Shown here: positions 22,832-62,294 of the stretch, one piece after another | Layout: each line of letters opens with the position of its first letter | Numbering within the stretch: the stretch's first letter is position 1 | Source of the DNA: a virus | Taxonomy: Duplodnaviria; Heunggongvirae; Uroviricota; Caudoviricetes | Length of the DNA: 64,000 nucleotides | IMG/VR virus record: IMGVR_UViG_2910903598_000005 | Location: 69,058-133,057 of that record | Direction: 5' to 3' (one strand) | Program-made: the position numbers and the translations under genes | Notes under the pieces: generated by a model | Databases searched by the model: none | What the model was told of the DNA's origin: nothing | What the model saw: the letters and a program-made list of their open reading frames with translations, nothing else

Positions 22832-22881
22832 TAATTCATGAAAATAAAAAATGCAACTGGGGAAAGTTGAGGGACGTAAAA

Positions 22882-33536: not shown

Positions 33537-33622
33537 ACTGGCATTTTATGACTCTATAAAACACAATATATAGTGATTATCCAATTATTGAACCACTATA
33601 TATAGTTGTATAAAGTGCCAGT
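33537..33622 (+). other. Long imperfect hairpin (ACTGGCA...TGCCAGT with inner ATATATAGTG / CACTATATAT) ending 4 nt before the tRNA 5' end
   Basis: Read directly. A possible precursor or leader structure, or a small RNA. Confidence 0.35.
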
Positions 33623-39079: not shown

Positions 39080-39247
39080 ATGAAAACAAGACAAGAACGT
39101 AAACAGGAAATAAAACGATTCTTTGATCGGCTGAGTCCCAGTGAATTGGACAGGCTGTTAGAAAGAAATGGAATTAATGATAAAGAGTCTGATGAGGCTC
39201 TTGCATATAGAATTATTAAAGAAGAAATTGAGAAAGGAGAGATATAA
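39080..39247 (+). CDS. small hypothetical protein (55 aa)
   Basis: Weak ribosome-binding site. Stop overlaps the next start. Confidence 0.3.
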   Translation: MKTRQERKQEIKRFFDRLSPSELDRLLERNGINDKESDEALAYRIIKEEIEKGEI

Positions 39248-39552
39248 TGAACAACTTCTTATATATTGAATCACGGGAAGAAGAGAATACATCCCTCGAT
39301 TCTAAACGTGTTTTATTGAATGAAGAAAATTACAAACATATTATTTCATCATTAGATCATTATCCACCGACGGCAGACGAAGTTAAGAAAGCAATTTGTA
39401 TTTTGACTGGACGATTGATCTACAGAAGCGTTTGGAATATGGAATCTGATATTGATAGTTTAAATATGAGTTTATCACCGCCAAAAGAAATGACGGTTGC
39501 AGAAATTGAAAAGGAACTTGGTTATAAAGTTAAGATTGTAAAGGAGAAATAA
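39247..39552 (+). CDS. hypothetical protein (101 aa)
   Basis: Ribosome-binding site AAAGGAGAG. Confidence 0.5.
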   Translation: MNNFLYIESREEENTSLDSKRVLLNEENYKHIISSLDHYPPTADEVKKAICILTGRLIYRSVWNMESDIDSLNMSLSPPKEMTVAEIEKELGYKVKIVKEK

Positions 39553-39863
39553 TGCCAATGGCAAAAAAGAAACAAGGAATGTCGTTTGAAATGATGATGC
39601 AAAATATGGAAATTAATCCAAGGCAATTGTATCGTCGTAGTTCGTGGAAGAAGACACGAACAACTTATGATTATGTGTTTATGATGTGCGAAGAAGAATT
39701 AAATGAGATTATTCCATTTGATAAAAAATATAAAATGAAACCACTCTTATGTAGAGACCAAAATGGAGTTATAACATTGGGATGGTTGCCTACACAAGAG
39801 GATATTTTCGCAAATGATTGGGTTGAGCAAGGATGGGATTTTAACAGTAAAAGGAAGAGGTGA
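39552..39863 (+). CDS. hypothetical protein (103 aa)
   Basis: Ribosome-binding site AAGGAGAA. Confidence 0.5.
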   Translation: MPMAKKKQGMSFEMMMQNMEINPRQLYRRSSWKKTRTTYDYVFMMCEEELNEIIPFDKKYKMKPLLCRDQNGVITLGWLPTQEDIFANDWVEQGWDFNSKRKR

Positions 39864-39871: not shown

Positions 39872-40171
39872 TTGAATTTTATAAAAGCAATGATCGCAAT
39901 AAAAAAAGACAAAACTACTATAAGAAGAGGCATTTGGGGAAAGGAAAAGTATTTGAAAATTTATTCGTCAGAATTAACTAATGTTTATTTTGAGTGTAAT
40001 GATATGGGTGAATATAAGCCAGATTCAATTATTTTTTTATTTGATAAAGAAAACGCAGAAGTTTGGATACCTCTTGCGGAAGATGTATATGCAGATGACT
40101 GGGAAATATATGTTGAATCGGTTAAAAAGCCAAATCAATCAAAAGCAAAGGTGAAGGAGAAAGAAGAATGA
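39872..40171 (+). CDS. hypothetical protein (TTG start)
   Basis: Ribosome-binding site AAGGAAGAGGTG upstream of TTG. Confidence 0.4.
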   Translation: MNFIKAMIAIKKDKTTIRRGIWGKEKYLKIYSSELTNVYFECNDMGEYKPDSIIFLFDKENAEVWIPLAEDVYADDWEIYVESVKKPNQSKAKVKEKEE

Positions 40172-40581
40172 AAGTGTTTTTAGGCGGAACATGCTCTGGA
40201 TGGAAGTGGAGAGACCAGCTACAGAAGATGTTGGATTGTGATTATTATAATCCAATCGTAAAAAATTGGAGTGAAGAAGACCGACTGCGGGAAGTCAAGG
40301 AAAGAGAAGAATCTGACTATGTTCTGTATGGCATTACGAATGGTATTAAAGGAGTATACAGTATTGCAGAAGTAGTTGATGATTCTCATAAGCGACCAGA
40401 TAAAGTGATCTTTCTTAATCTCTATCAGGAACAAAAGAATAAAGAATCTAAGCAGATGAGCCACAGTTTAAAAGCAGTCGAAAATTTATTGAAAGAAAAT
40501 CGTATTAAAGTATATTCTGGCGTACATGCTATGCAGGATGTTGCAGATTTTCTTAACTTAATGAATAAACGAAAGGGGTAA
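40168..40581 (+). CDS. nucleoside 2-deoxyribosyltransferase / DNPH1(Rcl)-like Rossmann protein, copy 1
   Basis: MKVFLGGTCSGWKWRDQL...YNPI resembles the N-terminal pattern (iYlAG...W) of PF05014-like proteins. Ribosome-binding site AAGGAGAAAG. Confidence 0.4.
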   Translation: MKVFLGGTCSGWKWRDQLQKMLDCDYYNPIVKNWSEEDRLREVKEREESDYVLYGITNGIKGVYSIAEVVDDSHKRPDKVIFLNLYQEQKNKESKQMSHSLKAVENLLKENRIKVYSGVHAMQDVADFLNLMNKRKG

Positions 40582-40587: not shown

Positions 40588-41541
40588 ATGAAATGTTTTT
40601 ATCATGTTGATCAGGACGGCATCGTATCTGGTTTCTATGTCAGAAAAGCTTGCGAACAGCGAGGTTTAGAGTTTAAACCAGAAGACTTCCGAAAAATTAA
40701 TTACGGCATGAAATTCCCGTTTCATGACATTAAACAGGATGAATTTGTATTCATTGTAGACTACAGCATTGAGCCAGAAGAAATGTGGCAGTTGCTTAGT
40801 ATTACAAAGAATGTATTTTGGATCGACCATCATCAGTCTACGATTGAAGCGTATAAAGATTTCAAGTGTGATGTAAAAGGAATCAGAATTACTGGAGCGG
40901 GTATTTCAGGAGCGAATTTGACATGGTTATATTTTAAATATATGTGTGATGAAAATTGGGAGCAAATTGAGAGGACGGATGAGAAAAATGTAAAAAGATT
41001 ACTCAATATATATAAATATAAAGCAGATTATCCAAAACTGGCAGAATATACAGCCATGTGGGATACATTTTATTTTGGTGAAACGTCAAAACAATTCGTA
41101 AAAGCATTTCACTATGCATTTGAATCGTATGATTTTGATGCGTTAAGTCCATTGCTAAACACGTTAAATAAAGATCAAGGAATTTATGAAGCAGCAAAAA
41201 TTATTGGTGATATGATAGCAGATGGCTTATCAATTATTGAGTATTTAGCAGCAAATGCAGAACAATATCTTAGAGCATATGGTTTTGAAACCATATTTGA
41301 GGGACATAAAGTCTATGCAATCAACAGAGCGTTAATCAATTCTGATTTCTTCGAATCTATTGATGCTTCAAAATATGATATGTTTATTGGTTTCTCATTC
41401 AATGGTAGTATGTGGGAATATCAGTTACGATCAGCAGAACAGGATAAAGTAAATGTATATGAACTTGCTGTGAAATATGGTGGTGGCGGTCATCCGAATG
41501 CAGCTGGATTTAGAAGTGAGAAATATGTGTTAGGAGTGTGA
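40588..41541 (+). CDS. DHH-DHHA1 family phosphoesterase (NrnA-like nanoRNase / pAp phosphatase)
   Basis: Motifs HVDQDGIVSG, WIDHHQS and C-terminal GGGGHPNAAGF. Ribosome-binding site AAAGGGGTAAAG. Confidence 0.7.
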   Translation: MKCFYHVDQDGIVSGFYVRKACEQRGLEFKPEDFRKINYGMKFPFHDIKQDEFVFIVDYSIEPEEMWQLLSITKNVFWIDHHQSTIEAYKDFKCDVKGIRITGAGISGANLTWLYFKYMCDENWEQIERTDEKNVKRLLNIYKYKADYPKLAEYTAMWDTFYFGETSKQFVKAFHYAFESYDFDALSPLLNTLNKDQGIYEAAKIIGDMIADGLSIIEYLAANAEQYLRAYGFETIFEGHKVYAINRALINSDFFESIDASKYDMFIGFSFNGSMWEYQLRSAEQDKVNVYELAVKYGGGGHPNAAGFRSEKYVLGV

Positions 41542-41544: not shown

Positions 41545-42330
41545 ATGTCAAAGAAAAATACAAGAGAAATTGAACGTGCTTTTAGTAAAAGCAGAGATCC
41601 AGATTGGGAAGCCGATGTAGAAATTTATGGAAAAAGGATTTTAAAAACAGTACGTGGTATTTGTCTTGGTGATGAATGGACAGAAATTAATTCATTGAGA
41701 AATAAGGATCGGATTGAGTTAGCGGAGATGTTTTGTAATTTTGACGATCATAATCCACATTTTAATCTTAGCCCTCAATATGTTTTATTGGATAAGTTTT
41801 CTATAACATCTCCTGCGATATTGTGTAGCAATGAAATAGTTATGAAAAATGGCAAAGTTTTGAGTGTTGATAATATATCAGCAAATCTATCAGGCGAAAA
41901 TGAGGTATACAAGATTTATTCAAATACGAAATATGATGATTATACATATTATGATGAATCAAAAAATTTAGTATTTGAATTAGCATCAAAAGATGTTGAT
42001 AAGATAATCCGATTTATGAGAGATTTTATGGATGTATTGCGTGACAGTAAGTTAACAAAGTATAGAAATAGTAGTTTTTTATGGAGACTATTTAACACTC
42101 TTGATATGCCATATTTTAAACAAACATATTCCATGAATGATTTGAAAAAATATACAAACACATTTAGATCTGAGGTTTGTGGTCAACTAGAAGAAACTAT
42201 TCCTAATTTTAAATATACTGGAGTTCCAATGGGCGGGTATATTGAAAGATATTTTGAATTAAGTTATGTAGAGGAAGTACAAAAATTTATTAAAGAACAG
42301 GAGGCTAAGAAATGTGAAGAAACTAAATGA
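41545..42330 (+). CDS. hypothetical protein (261 aa)
   Basis: Coupled to the upstream gene. Confidence 0.5.
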   Translation: MSKKNTREIERAFSKSRDPDWEADVEIYGKRILKTVRGICLGDEWTEINSLRNKDRIELAEMFCNFDDHNPHFNLSPQYVLLDKFSITSPAILCSNEIVMKNGKVLSVDNISANLSGENEVYKIYSNTKYDDYTYYDESKNLVFELASKDVDKIIRFMRDFMDVLRDSKLTKYRNSSFLWRLFNTLDMPYFKQTYSMNDLKKYTNTFRSEVCGQLEETIPNFKYTGVPMGGYIERYFELSYVEEVQKFIKEQEAKKCEETK

Positions 42331-42865
42331 TGAACAGCGAAAGCTGATTGAAGATAATTATTCTTTGATTTGGCATTTGCATGAGAAGTATTTTACAAAA
42401 TTTAAAGATTTTGATACATATATGGATCTTGGTCGTATGGCAATTTGCAAAGCAGCATTAAAATGGGATGAGTCTAAAGGTAATTTTGGGACGTATTTTA
42501 GATGGGTATTACAGTCAGAAATTAATAAATATTATATAAAATGGCATAGCCCAACAGAGAAAATGAACAGAAATGCGGAATCATTGGATGCACCTGTTGA
42601 CGAAAGAGTTGACGCAGAAGAATTAACAATTGGTAGTTTGCTTGTGAGTAACGATGACATAGAGAGTCAAGCACTAACAACAGTATATTATCAAGGAGAA
42701 TTTAACAAATTATCAGACAAGCAGAAGAAAATTATATATATGTTACTTGATGATATTGAGCATAAATACATAGCCAAAGAATTTGGAAAGAGTATTCAAT
42801 GGGTAAGTTGGCAACTTGGTAATATTAAAAAAATAATGCATAGGGCAAAGGCGGTGAGATCATGA
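42314..42865 (+). CDS. sigma-70 family RNA polymerase sigma factor, copy 1
   Basis: Region 2-like YMDLGRMAICKAALKWDESKGNFGTYFRWVLQSEINKY and region 4 HTH LSDKQKKIIYMLLDD...YIAKEFGKSIQWVSWQ. GTG start after GGAGG. Confidence 0.65.
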   Translation: MKKLNDEQRKLIEDNYSLIWHLHEKYFTKFKDFDTYMDLGRMAICKAALKWDESKGNFGTYFRWVLQSEINKYYIKWHSPTEKMNRNAESLDAPVDERVDAEELTIGSLLVSNDDIESQALTTVYYQGEFNKLSDKQKKIIYMLLDDIEHKYIAKEFGKSIQWVSWQLGNIKKIMHRAKAVRS

Positions 42866-43695
42866 CAATTGAAGAAGTGAAAGATTACATAAACTCGTCT
42901 ACAGAGTATGATTTTTTGCGAGATTATCCTCATAAAATCGCTTTTCTCACACTAGGTGGAAGTTATGCTTACGGAACAAATACAGAGGATTCTGACATTG
43001 ATTTACGTGGTGTTTTCCTTAGTGATAAAAGAGAGATTTTGTTGAATAATAATCCAAATAATCTTGAAAAGACAGACGATCATAAAGATGTTGATACTGT
43101 GTTACATTCGCATATTAAGATGATCAATATGCTTGCAAAGGGTAATCCTACGTTTTTAGAGCTGTTATATTTTGCACCAGACCGCTATTTATATATATCT
43201 GATATTGGTATGGAACTGATCAAAAATAGAGATATGTTTTTATCTAAGAGAGTTTATCATGCATATAAAGGATATATATGTGATTGCCTGACTCGAACGA
43301 GTTTTAAGTATTATAAAAATAAAGATTCAGAGAAAGAAAAGCAAAAGGCGGAACGATACGCTAATAAATCAATGATGCACGCAGTTCGATTATTGTTACA
43401 GGGCATTGAATTATTGCATAACGGAACAATGTTAGGATCTATGGATGACATAGGAAAAGATCTTGTAAAGATCAAAGAAGGATATAATAGTACGCATAAA
43501 ACATATAGATTTAGCAAACACAATGAGCATACAGAATATTTCCCAAATCAGTCATACGATGTTTTTATTGAAGGATTACTTTATCAATTTGATTATGATT
43601 ATATGAATACTGATTTGCCAGACGAACCAGACTGGGATCGTATCAATAACTTCTTGATGACAACAAATGAACGAATTGTGAGAGGAATGGTGTAA
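42862..43695 (+). CDS. Pol-beta-superfamily nucleotidyltransferase (RlaP-like)
   Basis: GGSYAYGTNTEDSDIDLRGVF (G-S...SD.D) and a helical region KSMMHAVRLLLQGIELLHNGTM. Confidence 0.55.
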   Translation: MTIEEVKDYINSSTEYDFLRDYPHKIAFLTLGGSYAYGTNTEDSDIDLRGVFLSDKREILLNNNPNNLEKTDDHKDVDTVLHSHIKMINMLAKGNPTFLELLYFAPDRYLYISDIGMELIKNRDMFLSKRVYHAYKGYICDCLTRTSFKYYKNKDSEKEKQKAERYANKSMMHAVRLLLQGIELLHNGTMLGSMDDIGKDLVKIKEGYNSTHKTYRFSKHNEHTEYFPNQSYDVFIEGLLYQFDYDYMNTDLPDEPDWDRINNFLMTTNERIVRGMV

Positions 43696-43697
43696 AA

Positions 43698-43967
43698 ATG
43701 TATGTAAAGATTGGAGACGAAATTGCTTTTCATCCTGGCGAATGCTTAGAAGAATTTGTTGAATCTTGCAGGATGACTCCTTATCAGCTTGCGAGTCAAA
43801 TCGGCATGGATGTTGATTATGTGCAAGGGCTGATTAACGGATCACAAAGTGTTACAAAAGAATTTGCGAAAACAATGGCAGACCATTATGGGTTTGCTGA
43901 TGATGGACAGTTCTGGTTAAATTTACAAGAAACATTTAATAAGAAAGTGGGTGGTAGAGATGTTTAA
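43698..43967 (+). CDS. HigA-family antitoxin-like helix-turn-helix protein (orphan)
   Basis: HPGECLEEFVESCRMTPYQLASQIGMDVDYVQGLINGSQSVTKEFAKTMADHYGF...WLNLQ matches the HigA/VapI pattern. No HigB-like ORF upstream. Confidence 0.6.
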   Translation: MYVKIGDEIAFHPGECLEEFVESCRMTPYQLASQIGMDVDYVQGLINGSQSVTKEFAKTMADHYGFADDGQFWLNLQETFNKKVGGRDV

Positions 43968-44493
43968 ATTAATAAAACGCCCACGTTCTGATAACGATAA
44001 ATGTACTAAATATGATGTTGTGCTTGATAAAGAGTATACTGTAGAAGAATTTATTGATGCGATTGCAGATGGAAGAAATGGAACGCATGGTCAAATCACA
44101 ATAAAAAATGATAAAGAAGCCATTGAATCACTTGTCTATAATATCGAGAGTATTGATTATAGACATTGTATACTTCAAAATGCTGAAGAAAAAATTAAAC
44201 AAGTATGGGCAGATGGTAGCTGGTTAAAAATCAATTATACTATCTTGCTTGAAAACAAAAAGGAAACACAAAAAGGTGCGCTCAGATTCATTGTTAAGAA
44301 ACCAAATGGAGAAGAATCAGTGGTTGTTATTTTTAAGAACAAGTCAGATGGCACATATTCATTTGTTAATTTGACCAAAGAGCATATTTGTTCATGTAAA
44401 TTTAAAACAATCGAGGAAGCGATTCAGGATATGAATGATCGACTAAGGAAAGGATTGATTGAGTCATATGTTATGAAAGGAGAAAGAAAATAA
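43951..44493 (+). CDS. hypothetical protein (180 aa)
   Basis: Overlapping start. Long ORF. Confidence 0.5.
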   Translation: MVEMFKLIKRPRSDNDKCTKYDVVLDKEYTVEEFIDAIADGRNGTHGQITIKNDKEAIESLVYNIESIDYRHCILQNAEEKIKQVWADGSWLKINYTILLENKKETQKGALRFIVKKPNGEESVVVIFKNKSDGTYSFVNLTKEHICSCKFKTIEEAIQDMNDRLRKGLIESYVMKGERK

Positions 44494-44831
44494 TGGATGT
44501 ACATATTGGAGATTTTTGGCAGAGTAAATGTAATCCAAAAGTAATTCAACATGTGGTTAATTTTTCATTTAGAATGGGTGGATTTCCAAGTAGTAAAGAT
44601 ATGCTACTGATCTGTGAAGAATTTCATTATACAAAGATAGGTGAGAATCCTGCCTCTGTCAAAGAAGATTCCAGATTCTTTTCACATATTACAGTGGATA
44701 ATTTTAAAAAGATGAATCAATGTATTCTAAGTGCTGAGAGGATTATGAAAGATACTCAGGCATTTAAAACAGATAAAGATATTTTGGATTATTTAACAAA
44801 GAAAGTGGAGGAGAAATTAAATGCAAAATAA
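44493..44831 (+). CDS. hypothetical protein (112 aa)
   Basis: Ribosome-binding site AAAGGAGAAAG. Confidence 0.5.
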   Translation: MDVHIGDFWQSKCNPKVIQHVVNFSFRMGGFPSSKDMLLICEEFHYTKIGENPASVKEDSRFFSHITVDNFKKMNQCILSAERIMKDTQAFKTDKDILDYLTKKVEEKLNAK

Positions 44832-45294
44832 TGTATTTCAGATTTATCTTGCAGGCGGTATGCAGGATTTATCATTTGAAGAGCAGAATACTTGGAGAGA
44901 AAGAATTTGCAATCAAATTATTGCTATGCGTAGAATACTTAATGTTAATATGAAAGAAGTCAACATTATTAACCCCGTTGATTATTACAATTTTCAAACA
45001 GAGTTACATGATACAGAAAAAGAAGTAATGAGATTTGATACAAATTTTGTTAGAAATAGTGATCTTGTTGTGGTAAATGCGAATGATCCGAAGAGCATTG
45101 GTACATCTATGGAGATTGCAATTGCATATGAACGTCATATTCCTGTACTGATTTTGAATACAGAAAAGAAAAGATTGCATGCTTGGTGGGTGCAAATGTC
45201 TGACAAGATATTTGACGATGAGAAAAAATTATGTACATATATATATGACTTTTATCTCAGGATGAATCATAGTAGTATTCGAGCATGGGTGTAA
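44821..45294 (+). CDS. nucleoside 2-deoxyribosyltransferase / DNPH1-like protein, copy 2
   Basis: IYLAGGMQ...W...NPVDY...SDLVVVNANDPKSIGTSMEIAIAYERHIPVLIL matches the PF05014 pattern. Ribosome-binding site GGAGGAG. Confidence 0.6.
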   Translation: MQNNVFQIYLAGGMQDLSFEEQNTWRERICNQIIAMRRILNVNMKEVNIINPVDYYNFQTELHDTEKEVMRFDTNFVRNSDLVVVNANDPKSIGTSMEIAIAYERHIPVLILNTEKKRLHAWWVQMSDKIFDDEKKLCTYIYDFYLRMNHSSIRAWV

Positions 45295-45332: not shown

Positions 45333-45381
45333 ACCACAATATATAGTATGTCTATAAATATTATATACTATATATTGTGGT
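45333..45381. repeat. perfect 17-bp inverted repeat ACCACAATATATAGTAT / ATACTATATATTGTGGT with a 15-nt loop
   Basis: Read directly. Not followed by a T-run on the + strand. Confidence 0.55.
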
Positions 45382-49861: not shown

Positions 49862-50036
49862 GACGCATTTGTTATAAACGTAATAGAACGATTATAACAA
49901 TATAAGCCGATCAGATAAAATTATTTTTTGTTCCTGTTGGCTTTGGCAGAGTTGACAGTGGATATAAATTGATGACTTATTTACAAACTAAAAACTAACT
50001 AAACAAATTTAATAACAAGAGGAGGAATTCTATTTA

Positions 50037-51281
50037 ATGAATTTTGAAATGACAGGAAAGCTCAGCATTAGCAAGGACACAGAAAAATTTCACCCTTACA
50101 GTGAGACAAAATATGAAAAGTCAGGCTGGGTACGAAGAAGACTGTTATTTAATGTGACATGCGGTGACAGTAGACATATGTTAACTGTTGACGCAGGAAG
50201 TTTCGAAGATGGACACGGTGATGTCTATACATATTCCAAACCAGAATACGACCCAAGTGGTAAGAAAATCAAAGATGGAGAAAAAATTCAGATTCCTTTT
50301 AAAGACAGATTAACATCTCCAAAACTGGAAGAAGTATCAGATTTCAGAAAATTTGTTTTTGACCTAGAAAAACCAGGAAGAAGATACAAATTAAAAAATG
50401 ACTTAGAAAAAATTAAAGAAGGTAAAGATGTTACGGATAAAGATCTTGCCGAAGTTGGATTAACGTCCGTAGATGAGCTTGAAAAAGAGTACGAAAAGAG
50501 CAAAAAGAGACATCATGAGTTTATCTCTGAATGGGATTACGCAGAATTTATCAAAAAAGTCATTGATAGTGGCAAATATGATGATTGCAATTTTCATATC
50601 AGGGGGCGTGGAGATTATTCATATTCTGATGACAAAGAAAGATTTTATGAGAATCTAATTCCTAACAGAATTTATCTCGCAGCAGATGATGATGAACCAT
50701 ATTCTACAGCAACAATGAGTTTTGTATTTGGAGCTGAGAGCTTAGACGAAACAAGTGTTGAGGAAGACGGTAAATATTACGTTAATGGATTTGTCTTTGA
50801 ATACATCCAGAGCAGAAAGAAAAAATTAGCCGTTCCAACAACAGTTGTTATTCCAGTTCCTGATAAAGAAAAAGACGAAAGCGGATACAAGAAGGCTAAT
50901 GGCTTAAAGAGAAAATTCATTGTCGACGATGAAGACAAATACATGGAATACGGCATTGTCGTAGATATGATCAATGGTTCTCAGCGTGTAGAACTTACAG
51001 AGGACATGCTCTCAGAAGAACAGAGAGATGATCTTGAATGTGGAATCATTACTATGGAAGAGATTCAAAAGGCGATTGGCGGAAGTGCTTATGGAGATAA
51101 AGTCAAAGAGTATCAGTTAATTAAACCATCACGCAACGGTATTAAAGAGGGCGTTCAGGACACGGTTTATACAGCAGAAGATATGGAAATACCTGCATTA
51201 GAGATTGACGAGAACGAAGATTTATTCTCAGAAGAATCAATCGATAACGATAATGATGACGACGATGACTTATTCGATTAG
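50037..51281 (+). CDS. SSB-like OB-fold protein with an acidic C-terminal tail (414 aa)
   Basis: N-terminus NFEMTGKLSISKDTEKFHPYSETKYEKSGWVRRRLLFNV follows the SSB OB pattern. The C-terminus ...DNDNDDDDDLFD resembles the SSB acidic tip. Ribosome-binding site AAGAGGAGG. Confidence 0.5.
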   Translation: MNFEMTGKLSISKDTEKFHPYSETKYEKSGWVRRRLLFNVTCGDSRHMLTVDAGSFEDGHGDVYTYSKPEYDPSGKKIKDGEKIQIPFKDRLTSPKLEEVSDFRKFVFDLEKPGRRYKLKNDLEKIKEGKDVTDKDLAEVGLTSVDELEKEYEKSKKRHHEFISEWDYAEFIKKVIDSGKYDDCNFHIRGRGDYSYSDDKERFYENLIPNRIYLAADDDEPYSTATMSFVFGAESLDETSVEEDGKYYVNGFVFEYIQSRKKKLAVPTTVVIPVPDKEKDESGYKKANGLKRKFIVDDEDKYMEYGIVVDMINGSQRVELTEDMLSEEQRDDLECGIITMEEIQKAIGGSAYGDKVKEYQLIKPSRNGIKEGVQDTVYTAEDMEIPALEIDENEDLFSEESIDNDNDDDDDLFD

Positions 51282-51286
51282 AGTTT

Positions 51287-51303
51287 AGAGCTTTTAGCTC
51301 TTT
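51287..51303 (+). terminator. weak hairpin terminator (AGAGCttttAGCTCTTT)
   Basis: Short stem with a short T-run. Confidence 0.3.
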
Positions 51304-51359
51304 ACTCGCTTGATGATTTATAAAACAAAATACTGTCTTTAAAAGGAGAAATTATACAT

Positions 51360-52568
51360 ATGGAATTACCAGTAATTAACGAAATTAAACCAGATATTAA
51401 AAACCTGTCAATCTATCTTAGATCAATTAAAAAGTTTGGAAAGACTACATTATTCAGAGATGTAATTATTGCAAAATATGGAGATCCGTCATGTGGACTT
51501 CTCGTACAGTGTGGATTTGAAAAAGGAACAAAGATGTTAGATAACATCAACACTCTGCGTATTACATCTTATGAAGATGCGATCGAACTTAAAGAATACT
51601 TAATTAACAAAAGGGTATTTAAAAGAGATAAATCTGGCAAGATTGTTCGCAATGAAAAGAGAAAACCAGAATACGTTCCAGTAAAACATAATATTCAGAT
51701 GGTCTGCTTTGATACAGTCGATGAAATTTGCCCACTGTTTGAGGAAGAAACAATCAGAATCAGCAATAAAGAAGGACAGAAAAAATGTAAAACTATCAAC
51801 GCTGCAATGGGTGGTTATCAGGCAGGACAGAGATACACAGCTGATATGATCAAAGCCTACATGGGTGATATTGAAGATGCTGGTATCGGTGTTTGGGGAA
51901 TTGCTCATACAAAATTCAAGACTATCAGAGAAAAAGGTGGCTTAGAAGAAGATGGATATCAGCAGTTAACATCTAATCTTGTAAGTGCTTATGAATCTGC
52001 TTTTGGTGATATCTTTGATGTAACTTTCACTGGTGTAATTGACAGAAATGTTGAAGTCAGAGGTGAAGGTGATAAAGCTAAGAGATATGCTACAGATGAA
52101 ATTAGAAAACTTTATTTCCGTGGAACAACATTAATTGATGCTGGTGGTAGATTTGCTTCCGATGCAGTTCCTGAATATATGGTATTTGACAAAGGAAATA
52201 TGGGAGAAGATTTCATTGAAGTGGTAGAAGACGGAATGGAGAAATCTAAAACAGTTCTTTCTAAAAAAACTAAAAAGCCAACTCCTCAGCCAGAGCCAGA
52301 AGATGAGATCGAGGAAGACATCGATGATATTATTGAAGACGATATTACAGAAGCTGACGAAGATTTAATGGAAGATGTTATTGATGATATTGATGAAGAT
52401 ATATCAGACGACTATCCAGAAGATTTAAGAGAACATGTAAAAGAGTTGTGTAAAACTTGTGAAGACGCAGAATTAAAAACAAAAGTCAAAGGAATCATTA
52501 AGCAGTATGGAAAACTTAGTGAAGTCGACGATGATGGATTAAAAGAAATGTATGATCTGCTGAAATAG
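51360..52568 (+). CDS. putative RecA-fold ATPase or recombination mediator (Sak4/AAA_24-like?) with a long poly-acidic C-terminus
   Basis: Degenerate P-loop SIKKFGKTTLF, a DTVDE-type Walker B candidate (VCFDTVDEI), and a C-terminal E/D-rich tail of about 90 aa. Ribosome-binding site AAAAGGAGAA. Confidence 0.35.
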   Translation: MELPVINEIKPDIKNLSIYLRSIKKFGKTTLFRDVIIAKYGDPSCGLLVQCGFEKGTKMLDNINTLRITSYEDAIELKEYLINKRVFKRDKSGKIVRNEKRKPEYVPVKHNIQMVCFDTVDEICPLFEEETIRISNKEGQKKCKTINAAMGGYQAGQRYTADMIKAYMGDIEDAGIGVWGIAHTKFKTIREKGGLEEDGYQQLTSNLVSAYESAFGDIFDVTFTGVIDRNVEVRGEGDKAKRYATDEIRKLYFRGTTLIDAGGRFASDAVPEYMVFDKGNMGEDFIEVVEDGMEKSKTVLSKKTKKPTPQPEPEDEIEEDIDDIIEDDITEADEDLMEDVIDDIDEDISDDYPEDLREHVKELCKTCEDAELKTKVKGIIKQYGKLSEVDDDGLKEMYDLLK

Positions 52569-52579
52569 GAGTCTGAGCA

Positions 52580-53116
52580 ATGCTTGTAAAATGTAGAATT
52601 TGCGGCAAAAAAGTAGACAGAAACGAAGCTTTTAAAGTAGCAGTAGAAGGTAAACCAAATGCCTACTACTGCTCAGAAGCTGAGTATAACAAAATGATGG
52701 AAAACCGCAAAAATAGGAATGATACATATTATTGTATTTATGATATTTTCGGATATACGGTGACGAATACTGTATTAAATAAGGAAGTAAATGCCCTCGG
52801 CAAAATCTACGGATTTAAATTGATATTAGAATACTTGCATGACAATCAAGAATATTTAACAAGAATTGTTGGGAGAGAATACAATAGCGAATTTGCTAAG
52901 ATTAAATATTTTTCAGCAATTTTAAAAAATAGTCTGGTTGATTATAGGGACTCAGACGATGGAGTTCCACAGAGACAACAGGCTATTGTTAAACATCATG
53001 TTGTAAGCAAGCAGATCAATGAAAATATCGGAGCTGAAAAAACTAAATACAAGAAGAAAAAGAAATCTCGTAGATGTATTAACGATATTTTGACGGAAGT
53101 TGGTGAGAAAGAATAG
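52580..53116 (+). CDS. hypothetical zinc-finger protein (178 aa)
   Basis: CRICGKK...YYCSE. Ribosome-binding site TAGGAGTCTG. Confidence 0.5.
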   Translation: MLVKCRICGKKVDRNEAFKVAVEGKPNAYYCSEAEYNKMMENRKNRNDTYYCIYDIFGYTVTNTVLNKEVNALGKIYGFKLILEYLHDNQEYLTRIVGREYNSEFAKIKYFSAILKNSLVDYRDSDDGVPQRQQAIVKHHVVSKQINENIGAEKTKYKKKKKSRRCINDILTEVGEKE

Positions 53117-53172
53117 CAGATTTTGTTGCAGGAGTTAAAGACAAATATCCGTCAAAATTATTAAAAGGTCGT

Positions 53173-54663
53173 ATGGAGGCAGAGGGAAATGTAATCAGTT
53201 GTTTCTTTAAAGATATGTTGCTTTTGGATGACACTACATTCGAACAACACGATTTCATTACAAAAGATGGGCTTTTTTACTTTTCTATGCTCAAAAAATT
53301 ACGTGAACAGGGCTTCTATTCTCTGGATGAAATCACGATTTTATCCAACCTGTCTGAGAACGCTATAAAAAGATACACTGACATGGGAGGATGGGATTCT
53401 ATTCAACATCAGATAGATATTATCAACACACAGAATTTTGATGTGTATATCGACATTCTGTATAGAGAAAACACTATGCTGAAGATGTATGATGATGGAT
53501 TTAACCTGTTCAAAGAGATAGACATTGACGGCAAGAAAATCGTACCAGTAACACTTTTCAGAAGAATGACCGCCGAGGAAGTTACGGATTGGTATGATGC
53601 AAGACTAAGTACATATGGTACGGGATATTCCAGTAAGATTCTGGAAGAAGAAGAAATTGATTTTGATGATGATTTTATTGATTCCTGCGTGGAAGGTGAA
53701 GAAAATGGAGTTCCATTTGATGTGGCAGGGATTGATATTAATGGCGAAGAAATGAACTGCTTTCCGTTCTTATCCAGACAGATCATGGGTATTCTTGAGG
53801 GAACACTTACTATGATGGGTGGATTCAGTAGTGCAGGTAAATCAACATGGTTTATCACTTTGCTTATGGCATTGCTGAATTATGATAGGAAAGTATTGAT
53901 CATTTCAAACGAAGAAAAAGTAAAGAAATTTAAAGTCAAGTTTATGATTTGGCTTTTGGCGAAGCATAATCGTTATTTTAAGTTGACAAAAAAGAAAATG
54001 ATGTCTGGACAGATTGATGATGCAAGCCGAAGAGAACTAAAAGACGTGCAACAGTTATGGCGAGAACGGTATAAGGGTAGAGTGAAATTCTTACTTATCA
54101 ACGATGCTGATATGACTGTTGTCAAGAAGAAAATTAGAGAACATGTACTTCGCTACGGATATGACACAGTGTTGTATGACACTTTTAAGATTCAAGAAGG
54201 AGATTTTAAAGGTAATCGTACTGATTTATCTTTGGTTCATGACAGTCGAGAGTTAGATAAACTTGCAAAAAAATACAACATTATCATGCTGGCATCTGTG
54301 CAGTTAGCAGAGTATATGAGAGGAAGGCTATTTCTTGATAGCTCTGTTCTTTCAAACTCTAAACAGATCAAAGAAGTATTAGAGAATCTTTTCTTGATGA
54401 GGACTGTATATGACGAAGAACTTGATGAAAAGAGTAAATTCTATTGTCGTCCATTTAGGCTAAAAAAAGTTAATGATAAATGGATTGAGGAAGAATATCA
54501 TCCTGATCGTACTGCGGTGTGGAGAGCTTTATTTGTTGAGAAATGTCGAAGCGGTTCAAACTCATCAGATACAGGAGTTGGTTATCTACTTAAATTCGAT
54601 GGTGATCATTGTATCTTTAGAGAGGTTGCGCAGGCAAGATTTAAACATGGAGAAATCAAATAA
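53173..54663 (+). CDS. DnaB-like replicative DNA helicase
   Basis: Walker A GGFSSAGKST. LLINDADMTV... and MLASVQLAEYMRGR match the DnaB C-terminal RecA-like domain. Confidence 0.7.
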   Translation: MEAEGNVISCFFKDMLLLDDTTFEQHDFITKDGLFYFSMLKKLREQGFYSLDEITILSNLSENAIKRYTDMGGWDSIQHQIDIINTQNFDVYIDILYRENTMLKMYDDGFNLFKEIDIDGKKIVPVTLFRRMTAEEVTDWYDARLSTYGTGYSSKILEEEEIDFDDDFIDSCVEGEENGVPFDVAGIDINGEEMNCFPFLSRQIMGILEGTLTMMGGFSSAGKSTWFITLLMALLNYDRKVLIISNEEKVKKFKVKFMIWLLAKHNRYFKLTKKKMMSGQIDDASRRELKDVQQLWRERYKGRVKFLLINDADMTVVKKKIREHVLRYGYDTVLYDTFKIQEGDFKGNRTDLSLVHDSRELDKLAKKYNIIMLASVQLAEYMRGRLFLDSSVLSNSKQIKEVLENLFLMRTVYDEELDEKSKFYCRPFRLKKVNDKWIEEEYHPDRTAVWRALFVEKCRSGSNSSDTGVGYLLKFDGDHCIFREVAQARFKHGEIK

Positions 54664-54684
54664 TTAAAATGTGCGGTGTGATAT

Positions 54685-55713
54685 ATGTTAGACAATATAA
54701 AAAAAGAACTATTGTCTAATCCTGAAAAAATAAGAGAAGTCTTGGAGCATTTTGATTATTGTCATGTAGTGATCAGAAACACATATATGTCATTTGGTCG
54801 AGATGAGGTCTCTTCAAAGAAGTCCATAGTAATCAATCTGAAAAATAACAAAGCGTTGTTTGTGCATGATTATGCTAGAGCAATCCAAAAAGATTTGTTC
54901 TCATATATTATGCAGCAACGTGGAGTTGATTTTGCAGAGGTTTTAGGAGTTGTTAAAAACATCTTAGGGATTACTGATTACTATGATTTCTTTGATAGAC
55001 AAGGTATTTTTGGCGGATTTTATGAAAGGATTAGAAATCACAATGTAGTTCGAATCCAAACTTATGATGAATCTATATTAGATAAATACAATAATGTAGG
55101 GAATTTAAGATTCCTTAAAGATAATATATCACTTGAAGCACAAAGAACTTTTGGCATTCGGTTTGATACATCATCTCAAGGGATCGCAATTCCGATTAGA
55201 AATCAATTAGGACAACTAATTGGTGTAAAAGAAAGATTTAACTATGATGTTGAAGATGGTGAAATGAAATATTTCTACGATGTTCCGTGTCAAATGTCTC
55301 AAACATTATATGGATATTCTCAGAATTATCAGTATTTAGCCAACGGTGTTGTGTTGATATTTGAGGCAGAGAAATCTGTAATGCAGTGTTTTACATATGG
55401 AATTAGAAACTGTGTGGCACTTGGCAGTGGAACAATCAGCAAGAAACAGGTGCAATTATTATTGGAATTAAATCCTAAAAAAGTAATATTTATGCATGAT
55501 GTTGGCTATGATATTGAGAATATTATGAGAAATATTGACATGGTAAAAGGATACTCAAGATTTGCTGAGATTGAGTTAGGATACTGGGACTTTAATTTAA
55601 GTGAGTATTCCAATAAGGTATCACCGTCCGATATGGGAAAAGAAAAGTTAAATTACATATTAGAAAACGAAATAAAAATGATAGGGGATGAAGACGTCGA
55701 AGAAGAAATATAA
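54685..55713 (+). CDS. DNA primase (DnaG-like, Toprim domain)
   Basis: Toprim region FEAEKSVMQCFTYGIRNCVALGSGTIS...VIFMHDVGYD (E ... DxD). Confidence 0.6.
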   Translation: MLDNIKKELLSNPEKIREVLEHFDYCHVVIRNTYMSFGRDEVSSKKSIVINLKNNKALFVHDYARAIQKDLFSYIMQQRGVDFAEVLGVVKNILGITDYYDFFDRQGIFGGFYERIRNHNVVRIQTYDESILDKYNNVGNLRFLKDNISLEAQRTFGIRFDTSSQGIAIPIRNQLGQLIGVKERFNYDVEDGEMKYFYDVPCQMSQTLYGYSQNYQYLANGVVLIFEAEKSVMQCFTYGIRNCVALGSGTISKKQVQLLLELNPKKVIFMHDVGYDIENIMRNIDMVKGYSRFAEIELGYWDFNLSEYSNKVSPSDMGKEKLNYILENEIKMIGDEDVEEEI

Positions 55714-57307
55714 CATTTTGAACGATTGCAGAGGACTTTTTGAAGATGAGGTGTTTGAAATTATCATGCAGGAGCGTGGTATTGACGATCCAGAGCATTT
55801 TCTAAATCCTACGGAAGATGATTTACTTTCTCTTGATGACTTAAAAAATATTGATAAAGCATATAAGCTTTTGGTAGATGCAGTATACAAAGATAAACGT
55901 ATTGCAGTACATTTTGACACAGATACTGACGGAGTTGCAGCGGGAACTATTATTACACGACATTTAAAAAACATGACAGAAAATCCAGTAGATGTATACA
56001 TTAACCGAGGCAAACAGCATGGATTAGCAAATCAGGACATTGCTAAGTTTTATGGGTATGATTTACTGATTGTCGTTGATAGTTTGGATAAAGACGAGAC
56101 TCAGTATAAGGATTTAAAAGAAACAGGAGTTGATGTGATTGTGTTAGACCACCATGCCATCGATCCAGATGTTCCTTATGACAACTATTGCACATTAGTT
56201 TCTTCTCAGAGAGAATATGAAAATCCACAGCTATCTGGCGCAGGTGTTGTTTGGAAGTTTTGCAAGTATATTGATGAGCAGAATGGTACAGATTATGCAG
56301 ATGATTTGGTCGATCTAGCAGGTGTTGGGCTGATTGCAGATATGATGGATATGAGAGTAATGGAGAATCGTTACATTGTATCCGAAGCTTTGAAAGAAAT
56401 TAGAAATCCTGCGATTAAGAAGATTATTGGTGGATTTGAATTCAACAGCACAGCAGTTGCTTTTAGTATTGCACCGTTGGTTAATGCTGCAAACAGAATG
56501 GATCAGAATGAAATTGCCCTAAATGCTTTCCTTGAAGACGACAATAAAAAGTTACGAGGATATATTAAACAGTTAAAGCAATGCAAAGAAGACCAAAATG
56601 AAGAGGTCGCACAGCTGATGCCAATGATTGTGGAACAGTGTGAAGCTCAGAGTTATAAAAAGATGATCACAACTTTTATCGACACTGATTATGGTATTTC
56701 TGGGTTAATTGGAAACAAATTGCTTGAAAAATACCAGAAGCCGATTCTTGTGCTAAAGAAAAATGAAGATACATATGCAGGATCTATGCGAGCAGTTGGT
56801 GTAAAAGACTTCCGACAGATGTGTAATAACAGTCAGTTGGCTGAAGCAAATGGACATGAACTTGCCAGTGGTATTGAAATTCCTAGAAAGAACTTCGCTG
56901 AGTTCACCTCTTATATAGAAGAAACTCTTTCAGATAAGCCAGAAGATACAACAGTTGATGTCGATATTATGCTTGATATTTCAGACATCACAAGAAAAAT
57001 GGTTGACATGATTAAGAAAATTGATCGTATTTCTGGACAAGGATTTAAACCTGTAAGAGTTTATATTGAAGAGATTGACGACTATGACATTGGTCAGATG
57101 AGCAATTATAAACATCTTGTCCTGAAACCATGTAACAATGATAAATTGTGGATCATTAAATGGAACTACGATGGATCATTTGAGGATATGGAAGACCACT
57201 CTATGATGAATGATGAATTTTGTGCTGTAACTACTCTTGATTGTGGATTCTTTGGCAGAAAGTTTGTGCTGAAAGCAGTGTGTGATTCACTTGAAGAGGT
57301 GGGATGA
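55688..57307 (+). CDS. RecJ-like single-strand DNA exonuclease (DHH/DHHA1)
   Basis: Motifs IAVHFDTDTDGVAAG, VIVLDHH and distal GSMRAVGV/ANGHELASG. Confidence 0.7.
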   Translation: MKTSKKKYNILNDCRGLFEDEVFEIIMQERGIDDPEHFLNPTEDDLLSLDDLKNIDKAYKLLVDAVYKDKRIAVHFDTDTDGVAAGTIITRHLKNMTENPVDVYINRGKQHGLANQDIAKFYGYDLLIVVDSLDKDETQYKDLKETGVDVIVLDHHAIDPDVPYDNYCTLVSSQREYENPQLSGAGVVWKFCKYIDEQNGTDYADDLVDLAGVGLIADMMDMRVMENRYIVSEALKEIRNPAIKKIIGGFEFNSTAVAFSIAPLVNAANRMDQNEIALNAFLEDDNKKLRGYIKQLKQCKEDQNEEVAQLMPMIVEQCEAQSYKKMITTFIDTDYGISGLIGNKLLEKYQKPILVLKKNEDTYAGSMRAVGVKDFRQMCNNSQLAEANGHELASGIEIPRKNFAEFTSYIEETLSDKPEDTTVDVDIMLDISDITRKMVDMIKKIDRISGQGFKPVRVYIEEIDDYDIGQMSNYKHLVLKPCNNDKLWIIKWNYDGSFEDMEDHSMMNDEFCAVTTLDCGFFGRKFVLKAVCDSLEEVG

Positions 57308-58575
57308 TTATGTATGAAGATTTAATTGCAAAAATTATCCCAACATTAAAATTTAAATTTCCATATTCTGTTGAAGATTATGGAAGAAATCTATATCTTG
57401 AAAACTACCATTGTCATAAAGATTTTAGTAATACATCAACTCCAGATTGTGCAGAATCAATTGAAAATTATGCAAAACGTATTCATGAATTTGGTGCAAA
57501 ATGTCTTTATTCAGGGGAGCATGGGTCACAAGGAAACCAGTTTGAAGTATATAAAGTGGCTGAAAAGGAGCATTTGAAATATATTCATTCTGCTGAAGCC
57601 TACTGGGTGAAAGATAGAAAAGAAAAAGACAAAGCAAACTGTCATATGATGATACTTGCGAAAAATGCTGAAGGGAGAGAAGATATTAACTTCGCCCTTT
57701 CTATGGCAAATATTGATGGATATTATTACAAACCAAGAATTGACTTAGAATTACTTTTTAATATTCCAAAAGAGAATGTAATTGTTACATCAGCTTGCTT
57801 ATCTGGTTGGCATTATAAAGATGCAGAGGACATTTGGTTAAAAATACATGACTATTTTGGCGATAATTTCTTTTTAGAAGTGCAGGCTCATAATACTGAT
57901 CCACAAAAAAGACTTAACAGAAAAATCTTAAAACTTGCAAAAGAACACAATATTCAGATCATTTGTGGGCTTGATAGTCATTACATTGATGATAAGACGG
58001 CAGTAAAAAGGGATCAGATTTTAAAGTACAAGCATATTGAATATCCAGAAGAATTTGGATGGTATATGGATTATCCAGACACAACAACGGTTATAGAGCG
58101 ATTTCAAGAGCAAGGAGTTCTTTCTGATGAAGAAGTCTTAACTGCTATTATGAACACAAACGTGTTCATGTCAGAATGCGAAGAAATTGTTTTTGACAGA
58201 AAATTTAAAATTCCAAGCGTTCATAAAGATAAAACATATGAAGGCAAATGTGCTATTTATAAGAAAATATTAAACAAAGCCTATGCTAAAGAAAAAGAAA
58301 AATCAAAAGAAAAAGCAGATGGAATTAGGTATGAAGCAAAACAAGTCATGGATTCAGGAGTTGTAGATTACTTTTTAACAAGTAAAGCAATTGTAGATGA
58401 TGCAGTAAATTGCGAAGGTGGAATATTAACTACTACGTCAAGAGGTAGCGCTGCATCATTCATTACAAATAAGTTGCTAGGATTAACAACGGTAGATAGA
58501 TTCAATGCAGATATTCCTATTTATCCAGAACGCTTTTTAACAAAAGACCGTGTTTTAGCAGGTCAGATGCCCGAT
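57304..58575 (+). CDS. DNA polymerase III alpha subunit, exon 1 (PHP domain), ending at the conserved MPD of the MPDxDxDF motif
   Basis: ENYHCHKDFSNTSTPDCAESIENYAKRIHEFGAKCLYSGEHGSQGNQFEVYKVAEKEHLKYIHSAEAYW is a PHP domain. The last residues are ...ERFLTKDRVLAGQMPD, then an in-frame stop. Confidence 0.65.
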
Positions 58576-59717
58576 TAAAACAATAGTGCATATAAACCAG
58601 TAAAGGAGGAATTTTTATTACAGGTATTTACTGTATTGAAAATATTGTAAATCATAAAAAATATGTTGGACAAAGTGTAGATATAAATGATCGATGGAAA
58701 CATCATCTAAATAGTTTAAGAAGAAACGATCATGCAAATTGTTATTTGCAACGTAGTTTTAATAAATATGGTGAAGAAAGTTTTAAACATTATATTTTAG
58801 AAGAGTGTAAAAGAGAAGATCTTGATGAGAAAGAGAAGAGTTGGATTAAAAAATTAAACACATATAAAAATGGCTACAATATGAATGGTGGTGGATCTGG
58901 ATGTTATATCCCAAATCCTACAGATGAATATAGAGAAAAAATGCGAAGAATGGTTATGGGGACGAATAACCCAAATTATGGGCATAAATGGACTGAAGAA
59001 ATGAAAAGAAATTTATCTCAAAAAAAGATTGGGAAAAATTTAAATGAAAATAACCCAAATGCCAAGTCTGTAATATGTGTTGAAACTCTAAAAATATATA
59101 AGACACAAAAGGATGCTGCAAAAGAATTACATATTAAAAATACATCATCAATATCAAGGTGCTTATTAAATAAACAAAATTTAGCTTATGGTTATCATTT
59201 TGTTTTATATACAAAAGAAATGTATGAATATTTATTAAACAATCAATTTGAGTATTTGTGCGAATGTAATGTCGGACGAAAAATCTATGCAGATATGACT
59301 AATAAAAGATTTTATTTGTTGAAAGATATGATGAAAAAATTGTATCCACTACTAAATTGCACTCAACGAGAACTAAAACAATTTCTTAAACAAGAAAAGT
59401 TCAATGTAAATAACGTAGAATATGTACTGTTATAATAGTCGCTATATGTAGTGATATATATAGAAAACCCAGAATATCAGGGGAAGTCCTAAAACCTTGT
59501 CCACCAAGCATTAGAGAAATCAAAATGTGGCATTGTTAACTGCAATGATATGGTAACAGCGGCAAGGATTGGATAATCCTGAGAGATAGCCCTAAGTTGT
59601 TTAAATATACAATATGGGAAGCTCGCAACGACTACCAATGGGAATCCGAGATAATATCGACGATTATGGTATAGTCTACTCCCCTATTAAAATATCGGGA
59701 AACCGAGGGTATCAAGG
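58576..59717 (+). mobile_element. Putative group I intron carrying a GIY-YIG homing-endonuclease ORF, inserted in the Pol III alpha gene
   Basis: Lies between conserved polymerase segments. The 3' ~280 nt has group-I-like core elements: R-like GCAACGACTACC (59625-59636) pairing with S-like TATAGTCTAC (59672-59681) through GACTA/TAGTC, and a P4-like AGGATT/AATCCT (59565-59580). Boundaries are approximate, not confirmed. Confidence 0.5.
58617..59435 (+). CDS. GIY-YIG homing endonuclease (I-TevI-like), probable non-AUG (ATT) start
   Basis: GIYCIENIVNHKKYVGQSVDINDRWKHH is a GIY-YIG motif. The frame is open from 58596. Ribosome-binding site AAAGGAGGA at 58602-58610. There is no ATG, GTG or TTG before the GIY motif; ATT at 58617 has 7-nt spacing. 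Confidence 0.55.
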   Translation: MTGIYCIENIVNHKKYVGQSVDINDRWKHHLNSLRRNDHANCYLQRSFNKYGEESFKHYILEECKREDLDEKEKSWIKKLNTYKNGYNMNGGGSGCYIPNPTDEYREKMRRMVMGTNNPNYGHKWTEEMKRNLSQKKIGKNLNENNPNAKSVICVETLKIYKTQKDAAKELHIKNTSSISRCLLNKQNLAYGYHFVLYTKEMYEYLLNNQFEYLCECNVGRKIYADMTNKRFYLLKDMMKKLYPLLNCTQRELKQFLKQEKFNVNNVEYVLL

Positions 59718-61745: not shown

Positions 61746-61795
61746 TTCAATTTTACAAATATACCGACAAGGAAATCAAAGAACTCATCAGCTCG

Positions 61796-62278: not shown

Positions 62279-62294
62279 GGTGCTGCCTAAATAA

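Follow-up and report, generated by a model that had tools for sequence, protein, structure and literature searches.

RlaP enzymes are Pol-beta-fold nucleotidyltransferases (NTases) of RNA repair. Two Pseudomonas RlaPs add one or two nucleoside monophosphates to RNA 3′-OH ends, with damaged RNA preferred, and these two are required to restore aminoacylation of over-trimmed, repaired tRNA; catalysis requires three strictly conserved aspartates, and NrdC.11 of phage T4 is a member of the family (PMC12776372). Among the repair NTases of jumbo phages, RlaP has the highest prevalence, and its predicted task is to put back nucleotides that RloC-type anticodon nucleases have taken off (PMC7824862). 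Here, an RlaP-family (PF10127) NTase gene was analysed together with the gene that follows it, which encodes a stand-alone helix-turn-helix (HTH) protein of HigA/VapI type, in a stretch of 64,000 nucleotides (the window) from a virus of the Caudoviricetes (IMG/VR record IMGVR_UViG_2910903598_000005, positions 69,058 to 133,057). As a preliminary description of this DNA had it, both open reading frames (ORFs) lie on the + strand, at 42862..43695 (277 aa) and 43698..43967 (89 aa), respectively. Both proteins belong to known kinds, and their adjacency looks like lineage history rather than a toxin-antitoxin pair, which makes this, by appearance, a mostly ordinary finding. It is likely that the two are independent accessory neighbours, an RlaP for RNA repair and an orphan HigA-type HTH protein, which may act in trans on a HigB/HigA-type module of the host.

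Like the Pseudomonas fluorescens enzyme PfRlaP and T4 NrdC.11, the window NTase scored well above the threshold of the family's hidden Markov model and carries the GS...DxD...D signature, and an AlphaFold2 (AF2) model suggests that it likewise consists of an NTase domain at the N terminus, a helical domain towards the C terminus and a final helix; it is phage-borne, as are NrdC.11 and the jumbo-phage members. It differs in that its helical domain occurs as several exchangeable cassettes, and in that neither its immediate neighbourhood nor the rest of the 64-kb window was found to encode an RNA ligase, RtcB, a kinase-phosphatase or a CCA-adding enzyme.

The HTH protein has the same five-helix fold as the HigA antitoxins of type II HigBA modules (TIGR02607/COG3093; Coxiella VapI, PDB 3trb; P. 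vulgaris HigA, 4mct/6chv; P. aeruginosa HigA, 7csv; GraA, 6f8h), is of similar size and carries both family motifs, HPGE and WLNLQ. Unlike these antitoxins, it has no adjacent toxin of the HigB/RelE fold, and neither a promoter nor an operator belonging to its gene was found; it also falls slightly below the equivalog cutoff, has two residues inserted ahead of the WLNLQ helix and possesses an N-terminal beta-hairpin that is common to only one subfamily. Its closest relatives outside its own clade share 35-39% identity with it over residues 3-85 and are fusions of a HigA-type HTH to Peptidase_M78, known from Streptococcus, Lactococcus and gut metagenomes; they differ from the phage protein, which is the HTH domain alone, with no metallopeptidase and no toxin-like gene upstream.

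A Pol-beta-fold NTase gene beside a small HTH gene is also the arrangement of the AbiE (AbiEii/AbiEi), MenAT and MNT-HEPN (type VII) systems. In the window, however, the NTase is an RlaP and not a DUF1814 or minimal NTase, the HTH protein is of HigA type and not AbiEi/COG5340, and the pair lacks obligate co-occurrence and shows no sign of an autoregulated operon. The HTH gene further resembles the phage orphan antitoxins (AdfN/DarG-like NADAR proteins, directed against DarTG1) in being an antitoxin-type gene on a mobile element without a toxin, in an accessory, anti-defence-like neighbourhood, and in varying between related phages in its presence and its inactivation. The antitoxins for which this role has been demonstrated act as enzymes (type IV), whereas the phage HTH protein is a candidate of type II and of HigA type. 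We know of no type II orphan of HigA type that has been shown to protect a phage.

The same region is present in ~50 contigs of IMG/VR, the longest of 169 kb and most of them from one human-gut data set, and extra copies occur in ENA, Logan and NCBI assemblies; a megablast search of the region against the deposited phages of INPHARED gave no nucleotide match. Anaerostipes sp. Marseille-Q3525 is the sole organism name attached to this clade, and the gene array belongs to a phage of about 160 kb from human-gut Firmicutes. The clade is collinear throughout, and the region is strongly mosaic, every gene around the NTase-HTH pair having several allele classes that reassort independently.

Identity and architecture of the nucleotidyltransferase

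The NTase matched Pfam RlaP with 85.5 bits against a gathering cutoff of 23 (E=6.1e-24; profile positions 14-248 of 249) and phrog_388, annotated 'nucleotidyltransferase', at 6e-42; 4086 homologues were found. The Pfam score upholds the preliminary assignment of the gene 5′ of the HTH gene to a Pol-beta-fold NTase of RlaP type and not to RelE/HigB. The protein carries the Pol-beta signature GGSYAYGTNTEDSDIDLRG. Its catalytic residues (42958..43095, + strand) are G33-S34 (42958-42963), D45-x-D47 (42994-43002) and, as third acidic position, D78 (43093-43095). When 21 and 24 members of the family were aligned, the columns of G33-S34, D45, D47 and D78 were invariant or at least 90% conserved.

The AF2 model of the NTase (predicted local distance difference test, pLDDT, 85.9) begins with two helices, which are followed by a beta core, long helices and a last helix at the C terminus. 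This is the succession expected for RlaP, in which the terminal helix packs on the N-terminal ones. Its best fold neighbours in the PDB were two-domain NTases (ANT(4′), HalB and LinB) with template-modelling (TM) scores of only 0.36-0.40; the PDB set searched holds no RlaP structure, and the best fold matches are therefore generic two-domain NTases at low TM. A sequence search of the PDB with the NTase returned nothing significant.

Families of the known NTase-containing modules were not recovered. Pfam matches of the NTase at E<=0.01 were limited to RlaP, NTP_transf_2 and Polbeta, with no AbiEii/DUF1814; PADLOC gave weak PDC-S09 matches only and no AbiE; the match to MntA_antitoxin was confined to the Pol-beta core and reached 22.2 bits (cutoff 60); and no HEPN family was found among the neighbours of the NTase. 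The missing AbiEii/DUF1814 and AbiE matches argue against a module in which the HTH protein restrains or regulates the NTase. For such a module it may be counted that nucleotide addition to RNA 3′ ends is chemistry common to RlaP and the MenT-type toxins, and that the NTase occupies the position that is normal for HigB.

RlaP homologues were present in 458 deposited phage genomes, including those of strictly lytic Herelleviridae, in which the gene lies beside ribonucleotide reductase genes and is followed by a small ORF that does not encode an HTH. In these phage records, and in bacterial RNA-repair operons, RlaP stands without an HTH partner, again contrary to a two-gene module. By its profile matches and signature the window NTase is a member of the known RNA-repair family RlaP, and it is predicted to add nucleotides to RNA 3′ ends.

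Identity of the HTH protein

The residues H12, P13, G14, W73, L76 and Q77 were near-invariant in an alignment of the HTH protein with 33 relatives. The motifs HPGE (43731-43742, + strand; residues 12-15) and WLNLQ (43914-43928, + strand; residues 73-77), from which the preliminary description had recognised a HigA/VapI protein, are thus real hallmarks of the family. Against TIGR02607 (antidote_HigA) the protein scored 42.3 bits (E=4.9e-11), slightly under the trusted cutoff of 47.7, and against Pfam HTH_31 it scored 26.8 with a cutoff of 27. It matched solved VapI/HigA proteins by sequence (3trb, E=1.5e-8). The AF2 model (pLDDT 88) consists of the N-terminal beta-hairpin and five helices, and its top 38 Foldseek neighbours in the PDB were all HigA-family antitoxins, with TM scores of ~0.7-0.8 and root-mean-square deviations down to ~1 Å (TM ~0.8 and ~1-1.4 Å for the HigA antitoxins compared above). 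Consistent with this result, the HTH protein of one clade member is labelled 'addiction module HigA family antidote' by JGI.

Charge and isoelectric point, of the whole protein and of its recognition helix, were considered as a means of telling a DNA binder from a protein binder and were rejected: the isoelectric point of the HTH protein is 4.5, ~20% of its relatives are likewise acidic, and the median is 5.0.

Orphan status and relatives of the HTH protein

Searches for a partner of either protein covered the 64-kb window, with ~118 ORFs, of the ~160-kb genome. No match to the HigB, RelE, ParE or YoeB families was obtained among these ORFs. The 180-aa product of the gene that adjoins the HTH gene on its 3′ side (43951..44493, + strand) has no family match; it and a 112-aa gene farther downstream were considered as toxins in canonical order and were rejected, as neither has a family match and their presence is independent of the HTH gene. 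Indeed, the 180-aa gene was present in two genomes from which the HTH gene is deleted (L044 and L050) and absent from one that has it (L109); its presence does not track the HTH gene, so it is not the HTH partner. No neighbouring gene co-varied with the HTH gene across the clade.

When 1.84 billion representatives were searched exhaustively with phmmer, the HTH protein proved to have 799 relatives. Outside the clade none of them reached 50% identity; the next stood at 25-44% (E>=1.5e-12), and there is consequently no sign of recent capture from a host. Among viral contigs, 10 of the 22 non-redundant upstream neighbours of HigA-like HTHs were HigB-like or YoeB-like. The 35-39% identity to the closest non-clade subfamily includes the N-terminal hairpin. 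When gut metagenomes were scanned with a narrow alignment of this subfamily (63 loci), the HTH was the N-terminal domain of a 361-aa fusion to Peptidase_M78 (ImmA/IrrE, HEIGH motif) at 50 loci, and an ORF of 90-125 aa, mostly of 112 aa, lay upstream at 47, overlapping the HTH gene by a few nt. Four variants of this partner ORF were tested, and all were weakly HigB-like (17-22 bits on a HigB-like model, cutoff 27). The fusions, found in Streptococcus, Lactococcus and Companilactobacillus, are named 'HigA family addiction module antitoxin' by NCBI. With a profile of the 112-aa HigB-like partner, neither the window nor any of 125 clade loci gave a match (best E=3.6), while control loci gave 13 positives.

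These searches bear out the earlier statement that no HigB toxin accompanies the HTH gene, which is a true orphan within 64 kb. Judged by its sequence and its relatives, the HTH protein is a stand-alone HigA-type domain of antitoxin ancestry, without toxin and without peptidase. A link to a host through the closest module-bearing relatives was sought and rejected as unspecific, these being from Lactobacillales, not Anaerostipes, and only 35-39% identical.

The module of these relatives (L370-L436, for example L408 2155-3580; P0297-P0416) is widespread in Streptococcus, Lactococcus and gut metagenomes. In it, the 112-aa weakly HigB-like ORF overlaps the gene of the 361-aa HigA-HTH and Peptidase_M78 fusion by 8 nt, and one cluster of the module has 3456 member sequences; an antitoxin with its own metallopeptidase domain is an interesting architecture.

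Neighbours of RlaP outside the clade

In a clade that is collinear throughout, the adjacency of NTase and HTH genes says little by itself, and linkage was therefore examined outside it. The sample consisted of 128 distant RlaP loci (80 bacterial genomes and 48 viral contigs); the gene immediately downstream was extracted from each locus, and the 95 non-redundant ones were scanned against Pfam. A tRNA nucleotidyltransferase of CCA-adding type (PolyA_pol head, HD and tRNA_NucTran2_2) accounted for ~30 of the 95, usually overlapping the RlaP stop by 8-14 nt. The other downstream neighbours included a second RlaP (8 of 95), RtcB (1), a T4-type RNA ligase (T4 Rnl1; 1) and AAA_33 kinase-like proteins (2), and HTH_3 was found in only 2. 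With a HigA-like HTH profile, no ORF matched within 3 kb on either side of any of the 128 distant loci, which is further evidence against a module. The small ORFs that follow RlaP in phages Bcp1, LeBron and MarvelLand were considered as HTH proteins and rejected, since none is an HTH.

The conserved partner of RlaP is thus RNA or tRNA repair machinery, and its adjacency to an HTH gene is specific to one phage lineage. Within the window, no member of the RtcB, RNA ligase (Rnl), polynucleotide kinase (PNK) or CCA-adding families was found among the ~118 ORFs.

The pairing of RlaP with a CCA-adding enzyme was far commoner in this census than that with RNA ligase. The adjoining CCA-adding enzymes are of 445-457 aa and carry an HD domain, and the pairing occurs in gut Firmicutes/Bacteroidales genomes and viral contigs (for example at loci L118, L126, L130, L133, L136, L138, L151 and L235-L272).

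Loss and conservation of the HTH gene

The HTH gene has been lost three independent times within the clade, by two deletions and one common frameshift, and the NTase gene is intact in each case. In L050 an internal deletion has removed the HTH gene except for ~6 nt at its start and ~35 nt at its end, and in L044 the gene is deleted at a different junction with no remnant. A 1-nt deletion is shared by L048 and L274-L276; it falls in a T run at the HPGE codons and changes the product to MYVKIGDEIAFILANA*. The corresponding run of four T in the window (43727..43730, + strand) is intact. The frameshift leaves a 64-aa ORF that starts at Met26 (cluster P0018) and is indexed in 167 blocks of the collection; it also turns up in independent samples.

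The frameshifted alleles lie at 5834-6102 in L048 and at 2927-3193 in L274-L276. Gene callers annotate the 64-aa remnant, so that many database 'HTH' entries are truncated pseudogene remnants or possibly a shortened functional product.

Where the HTH gene is retained, it is under purifying selection, with a median pairwise ratio of nonsynonymous to synonymous substitution rates (dN/dS) of 0.165 among 33 intact alleles. It is 89-99% conserved in the clade while neighbouring genes diverge to 35-65%, and a distant relative retains a divergent homologue (62% identity) in the corresponding place. Low dN/dS and high conservation, taken with repeated loss, indicate an accessory gene that is functional yet dispensable. 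Such losses are not expected of an antitoxin on which a toxic NTase obligately depends, and the persistence of the intact NTase without the HTH gene contradicts a module of the two.

Exchangeable cassettes in the nucleotidyltransferase gene

The alleles of the NTase gene differ block-wise, with 100% identity in the first 60 residues (the catalytic core) and the last 20-25, and 5-60% between. The exchangeable region corresponds approximately to 43045..43610 of the window (+ strand; residues ~62-250) and is mostly the helical domain, and otherwise near-identical phages carry different helical-domain cassettes inside the gene. One allele, that of L107, is a chimaera of two allele classes. This mosaicism suggests diversifying exchange of substrate-recognition modules in a putative RNA-binding helical domain. 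The natural cassette series of the RlaP helical domain is a resource for studying substrate recognition in a newly characterised RNA-repair family.

At least three helical-domain cassettes were distinguished, at 77%, 65% and 53-55% overall identity, in a comparison of L032, L040, L043, L107 and L109.

Organization and expression of the locus

On its 5′ side the NTase gene adjoins a gene for a phage sigma factor of sigma-70/extracytoplasmic function (ECF) type (42314..42865, + strand; TIGR02937, 45.1 bits against a cutoff of 42.9; phrog_351, 1e-17), whose stop codon overlaps the NTase start (ATGA). The NTase stop and the HTH start are separated by 2 nt, and the 3′ end of the HTH gene overlaps the 180-aa gene by 17 nt. 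No intergenic space exists around the HTH gene, where genes overlap or abut. The real genes of the window are all on the + strand, in a tightly packed array of ~33% GC; no tRNA genes were found in the window.

Scans for promoter and terminator consensus sequences around the pair gave counts equal to the shuffled expectation, consensus scans being weak evidence. The sigma factor and NTase genes are probably co-transcribed, and the HTH gene would have no separate promoter but be expressed along with the other genes of the array.

Roles of the two proteins

Under the preferred reading, that of an independent repair enzyme and orphan HTH protein, RlaP would, by homology, add one or two nucleotides to damaged RNA 3′-OH ends, and tRNAs that ribotoxins of the host, such as anticodon nucleases of RloC type, have trimmed would thereby be restorable. 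Its role would be counter-defence or repair, not that of a toxin. The HTH protein would act in trans on a HigB/HigA-type module of the host, either by binding the toxin or by occupying the module operator, and so might blunt an RNase-based abortive-infection response. Counter-defence is favoured by its HigA ancestry, its presence/absence polymorphism, which is typical of counter-defence genes, and its accessory, anti-defence-like neighbourhood. A precedent for orphan antitoxins of phages is the enzymatic, DarG-like AdfN (PMC11257639), and orphan antitoxins have been proposed in plasmid leading regions (PMC11541004).

A toxin-neutralising activity of the HTH protein is accordingly framed here as a candidate function. 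A free antitoxin against a chromosomal HigB-like toxin had been put forward in the preliminary description; the orphan state, the HigA ancestry and the HigB-like partners of relatives agree with that proposal, the lack of a close host homologue does not, and such a role is possible. If the HTH protein does neutralise a host toxin of RelE fold, it would be, to our knowledge, the first type II antitoxin shown as a phage counter-defence.

Several observations weigh against the preferred reading. For its counter-defence part, no close host homologue of the HTH protein was found, nothing outside the clade reaching 50% identity, and the closest relatives with a module come from Lactobacillales and not from the presumed host. 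The acidity of the protein is not unusual for its family and hence gives no hint that DNA binding was lost. RlaP is without its usual partner (RNA ligase, RtcB or CCA-adding enzyme) within 64 kb. The 64-aa frameshift product might keep some function. Inside the clade, collinear as it is, the HTH gene never occurs without the NTase gene (55 of 55 genomes). Lastly, all three losses of the HTH gene fell on a single NTase allele class (276 aa, 53-55% identity), which is carried by 26% of the sampled genomes, so that three losses on it by chance have P ~0.018. This bias may reflect lineage structure; there is a small possibility that the window-type NTase allele depends on the HTH protein.

The strongest alternative is that the HTH protein is an Xre/HigA-class transcription regulator of phage (or host) promoters, unrelated to toxins, whose position after RlaP is incidental. 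We give this somewhat less than an even chance, and a regulatory role internal to the phage is nearly as likely as action in trans on a host module. The HigA relatives with solved structures are all binders of operator DNA (PDB 6chv, 9chn, 7csy, 6jpi and 6fix), and the HTH gene lies in an early or middle array that has a phage sigma factor upstream; the window has no toxin, a close host homologue is lacking, and the score is below the HigA equivalog cutoff, all of which suit a regulator. On the other hand, two deletions and a frameshift common to a lineage are unexpected for a key regulator, the nearest relatives are antitoxin components of HigB-like modules, and no candidate operator was found, the sole strong palindrome nearby being a variable insert unrelated to HTH status.

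That the HTH protein, as a type II orphan antitoxin, and RlaP together form a two-pronged anti-ribotoxin cassette, in which a host HigB/RelE-fold RNase module, for example one of the HigB-like/HigA-M78 kind found in the closest relatives, would be blocked or silenced and the RNA ends repaired, is conceivable and on present evidence rather unlikely. Were it so, the RlaP cassettes and the allele-limited loss of the HTH gene would reflect matching to different host ribotoxin repertoires.

It is improbable that the HTH gene is a decaying remnant of a captured HigB/HigA(-M78) module, with toxin and peptidase lost and no current function. The protein does lack both partner elements of its closest relatives, and it was lost repeatedly in the clade, yet its conservation beside diverging neighbours, the low dN/dS and the 62%-identity homologue at the same position in a distant relative are not those of a decaying gene.

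A non-canonical toxin-antitoxin or regulator-effector module of NTase and HTH protein, which the preliminary description had offered by analogy to AbiE, is the least probable of all and is not supported: strict adjacency in all 55 clade genomes with an intact HTH gene, the 2-nt spacing and the confinement of the three losses to one NTase allele class speak for it, but RlaP is a repair enzyme for whose purification E. coli served as the over-expression host (PMC12776372), no separate promoter was found for the pair, all genes of the array are equally tightly packed, and RlaP loci without an HTH gene, together with HTH loss beside an intact NTase, run counter to it. The main value of the analysis is negative, in that an RlaP and an unrelated orphan HTH protein should not be catalogued as a new type of toxin-antitoxin system.

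Other features of the window

A genuine toxin-antitoxin pair of the phage is formed by two adjacent genes for HicA (57 aa; 12644-12817, + strand) and HicB (156 aa; 12840-13310, + strand). A PemK/MazF-like toxin domain (Pfam PemK_toxin, 2.3e-15) is present in an unusually long protein of 169 aa (22822-23331, + strand), and the 106-aa gene directly upstream (22401-22721) is a candidate for its antitoxin.

Upstream of the sigma factor gene lie two tandem Tad2-like (Thoeris anti-defence 2) genes (39247-39552 and 39552-39863, + strand), assigned by positional correspondence with annotated homologous loci, and a DHH/DHHA1 phosphoesterase gene (40588-41541). Nucleoside 2-deoxyribosyltransferase-like genes are found at 40168-40581 and 44821-45294. 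In total the window has two DHH phosphoesterases and several nucleoside 2-deoxyribosyltransferase-like genes, and it also holds PcfJ, two sigma factors, an integrase, antirepressor-type genes with Bro-N/ANT domains, and Lar. From its predicted gene content the array looks like an island for anti-defence and the handling of nucleotide signals.

A perfect 17-nt inverted repeat, ACCACAATATATAGTAT, with a 15-nt spacer is located at 45333-45381, in a 215-nt gap before the PcfJ-like gene. It was considered as an operator of the HTH protein and rejected, being present in HTH-less L044 and the frameshift genomes and absent from many genomes with an intact HTH gene; it occurs in only about one third of the related phages. 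Similar half-sites in direct orientation lie in another intergenic gap (33560-33576 and 33592-33608; 4 matches against 0.42 expected). The repeat could represent a mobile hairpin element, or else a motif of promoters or operators that is specific to the phage.

At the start of the window (1-4500) the gene orientation and GC skew flip around 2-4 kb, and a minus-strand gene for an Xre-like HTH protein (2976-3227) stands opposite the beginning of the long + strand array. This segment looks like a divergent regulatory or lysogeny-type switch. The integrase, three Bro-N genes, an ANT/KilAC gene and Lar are found within 1-33 kb. Toward the other end, at approximately 50000-62300, two separate ORFs match DNA_pol3_alpha, with PHP, finger and HHH_6 domains and a NUMOD3 motif, which suggests a DNA polymerase III alpha gene that is split by, or neighbours, an insertion of homing-endonuclease type.

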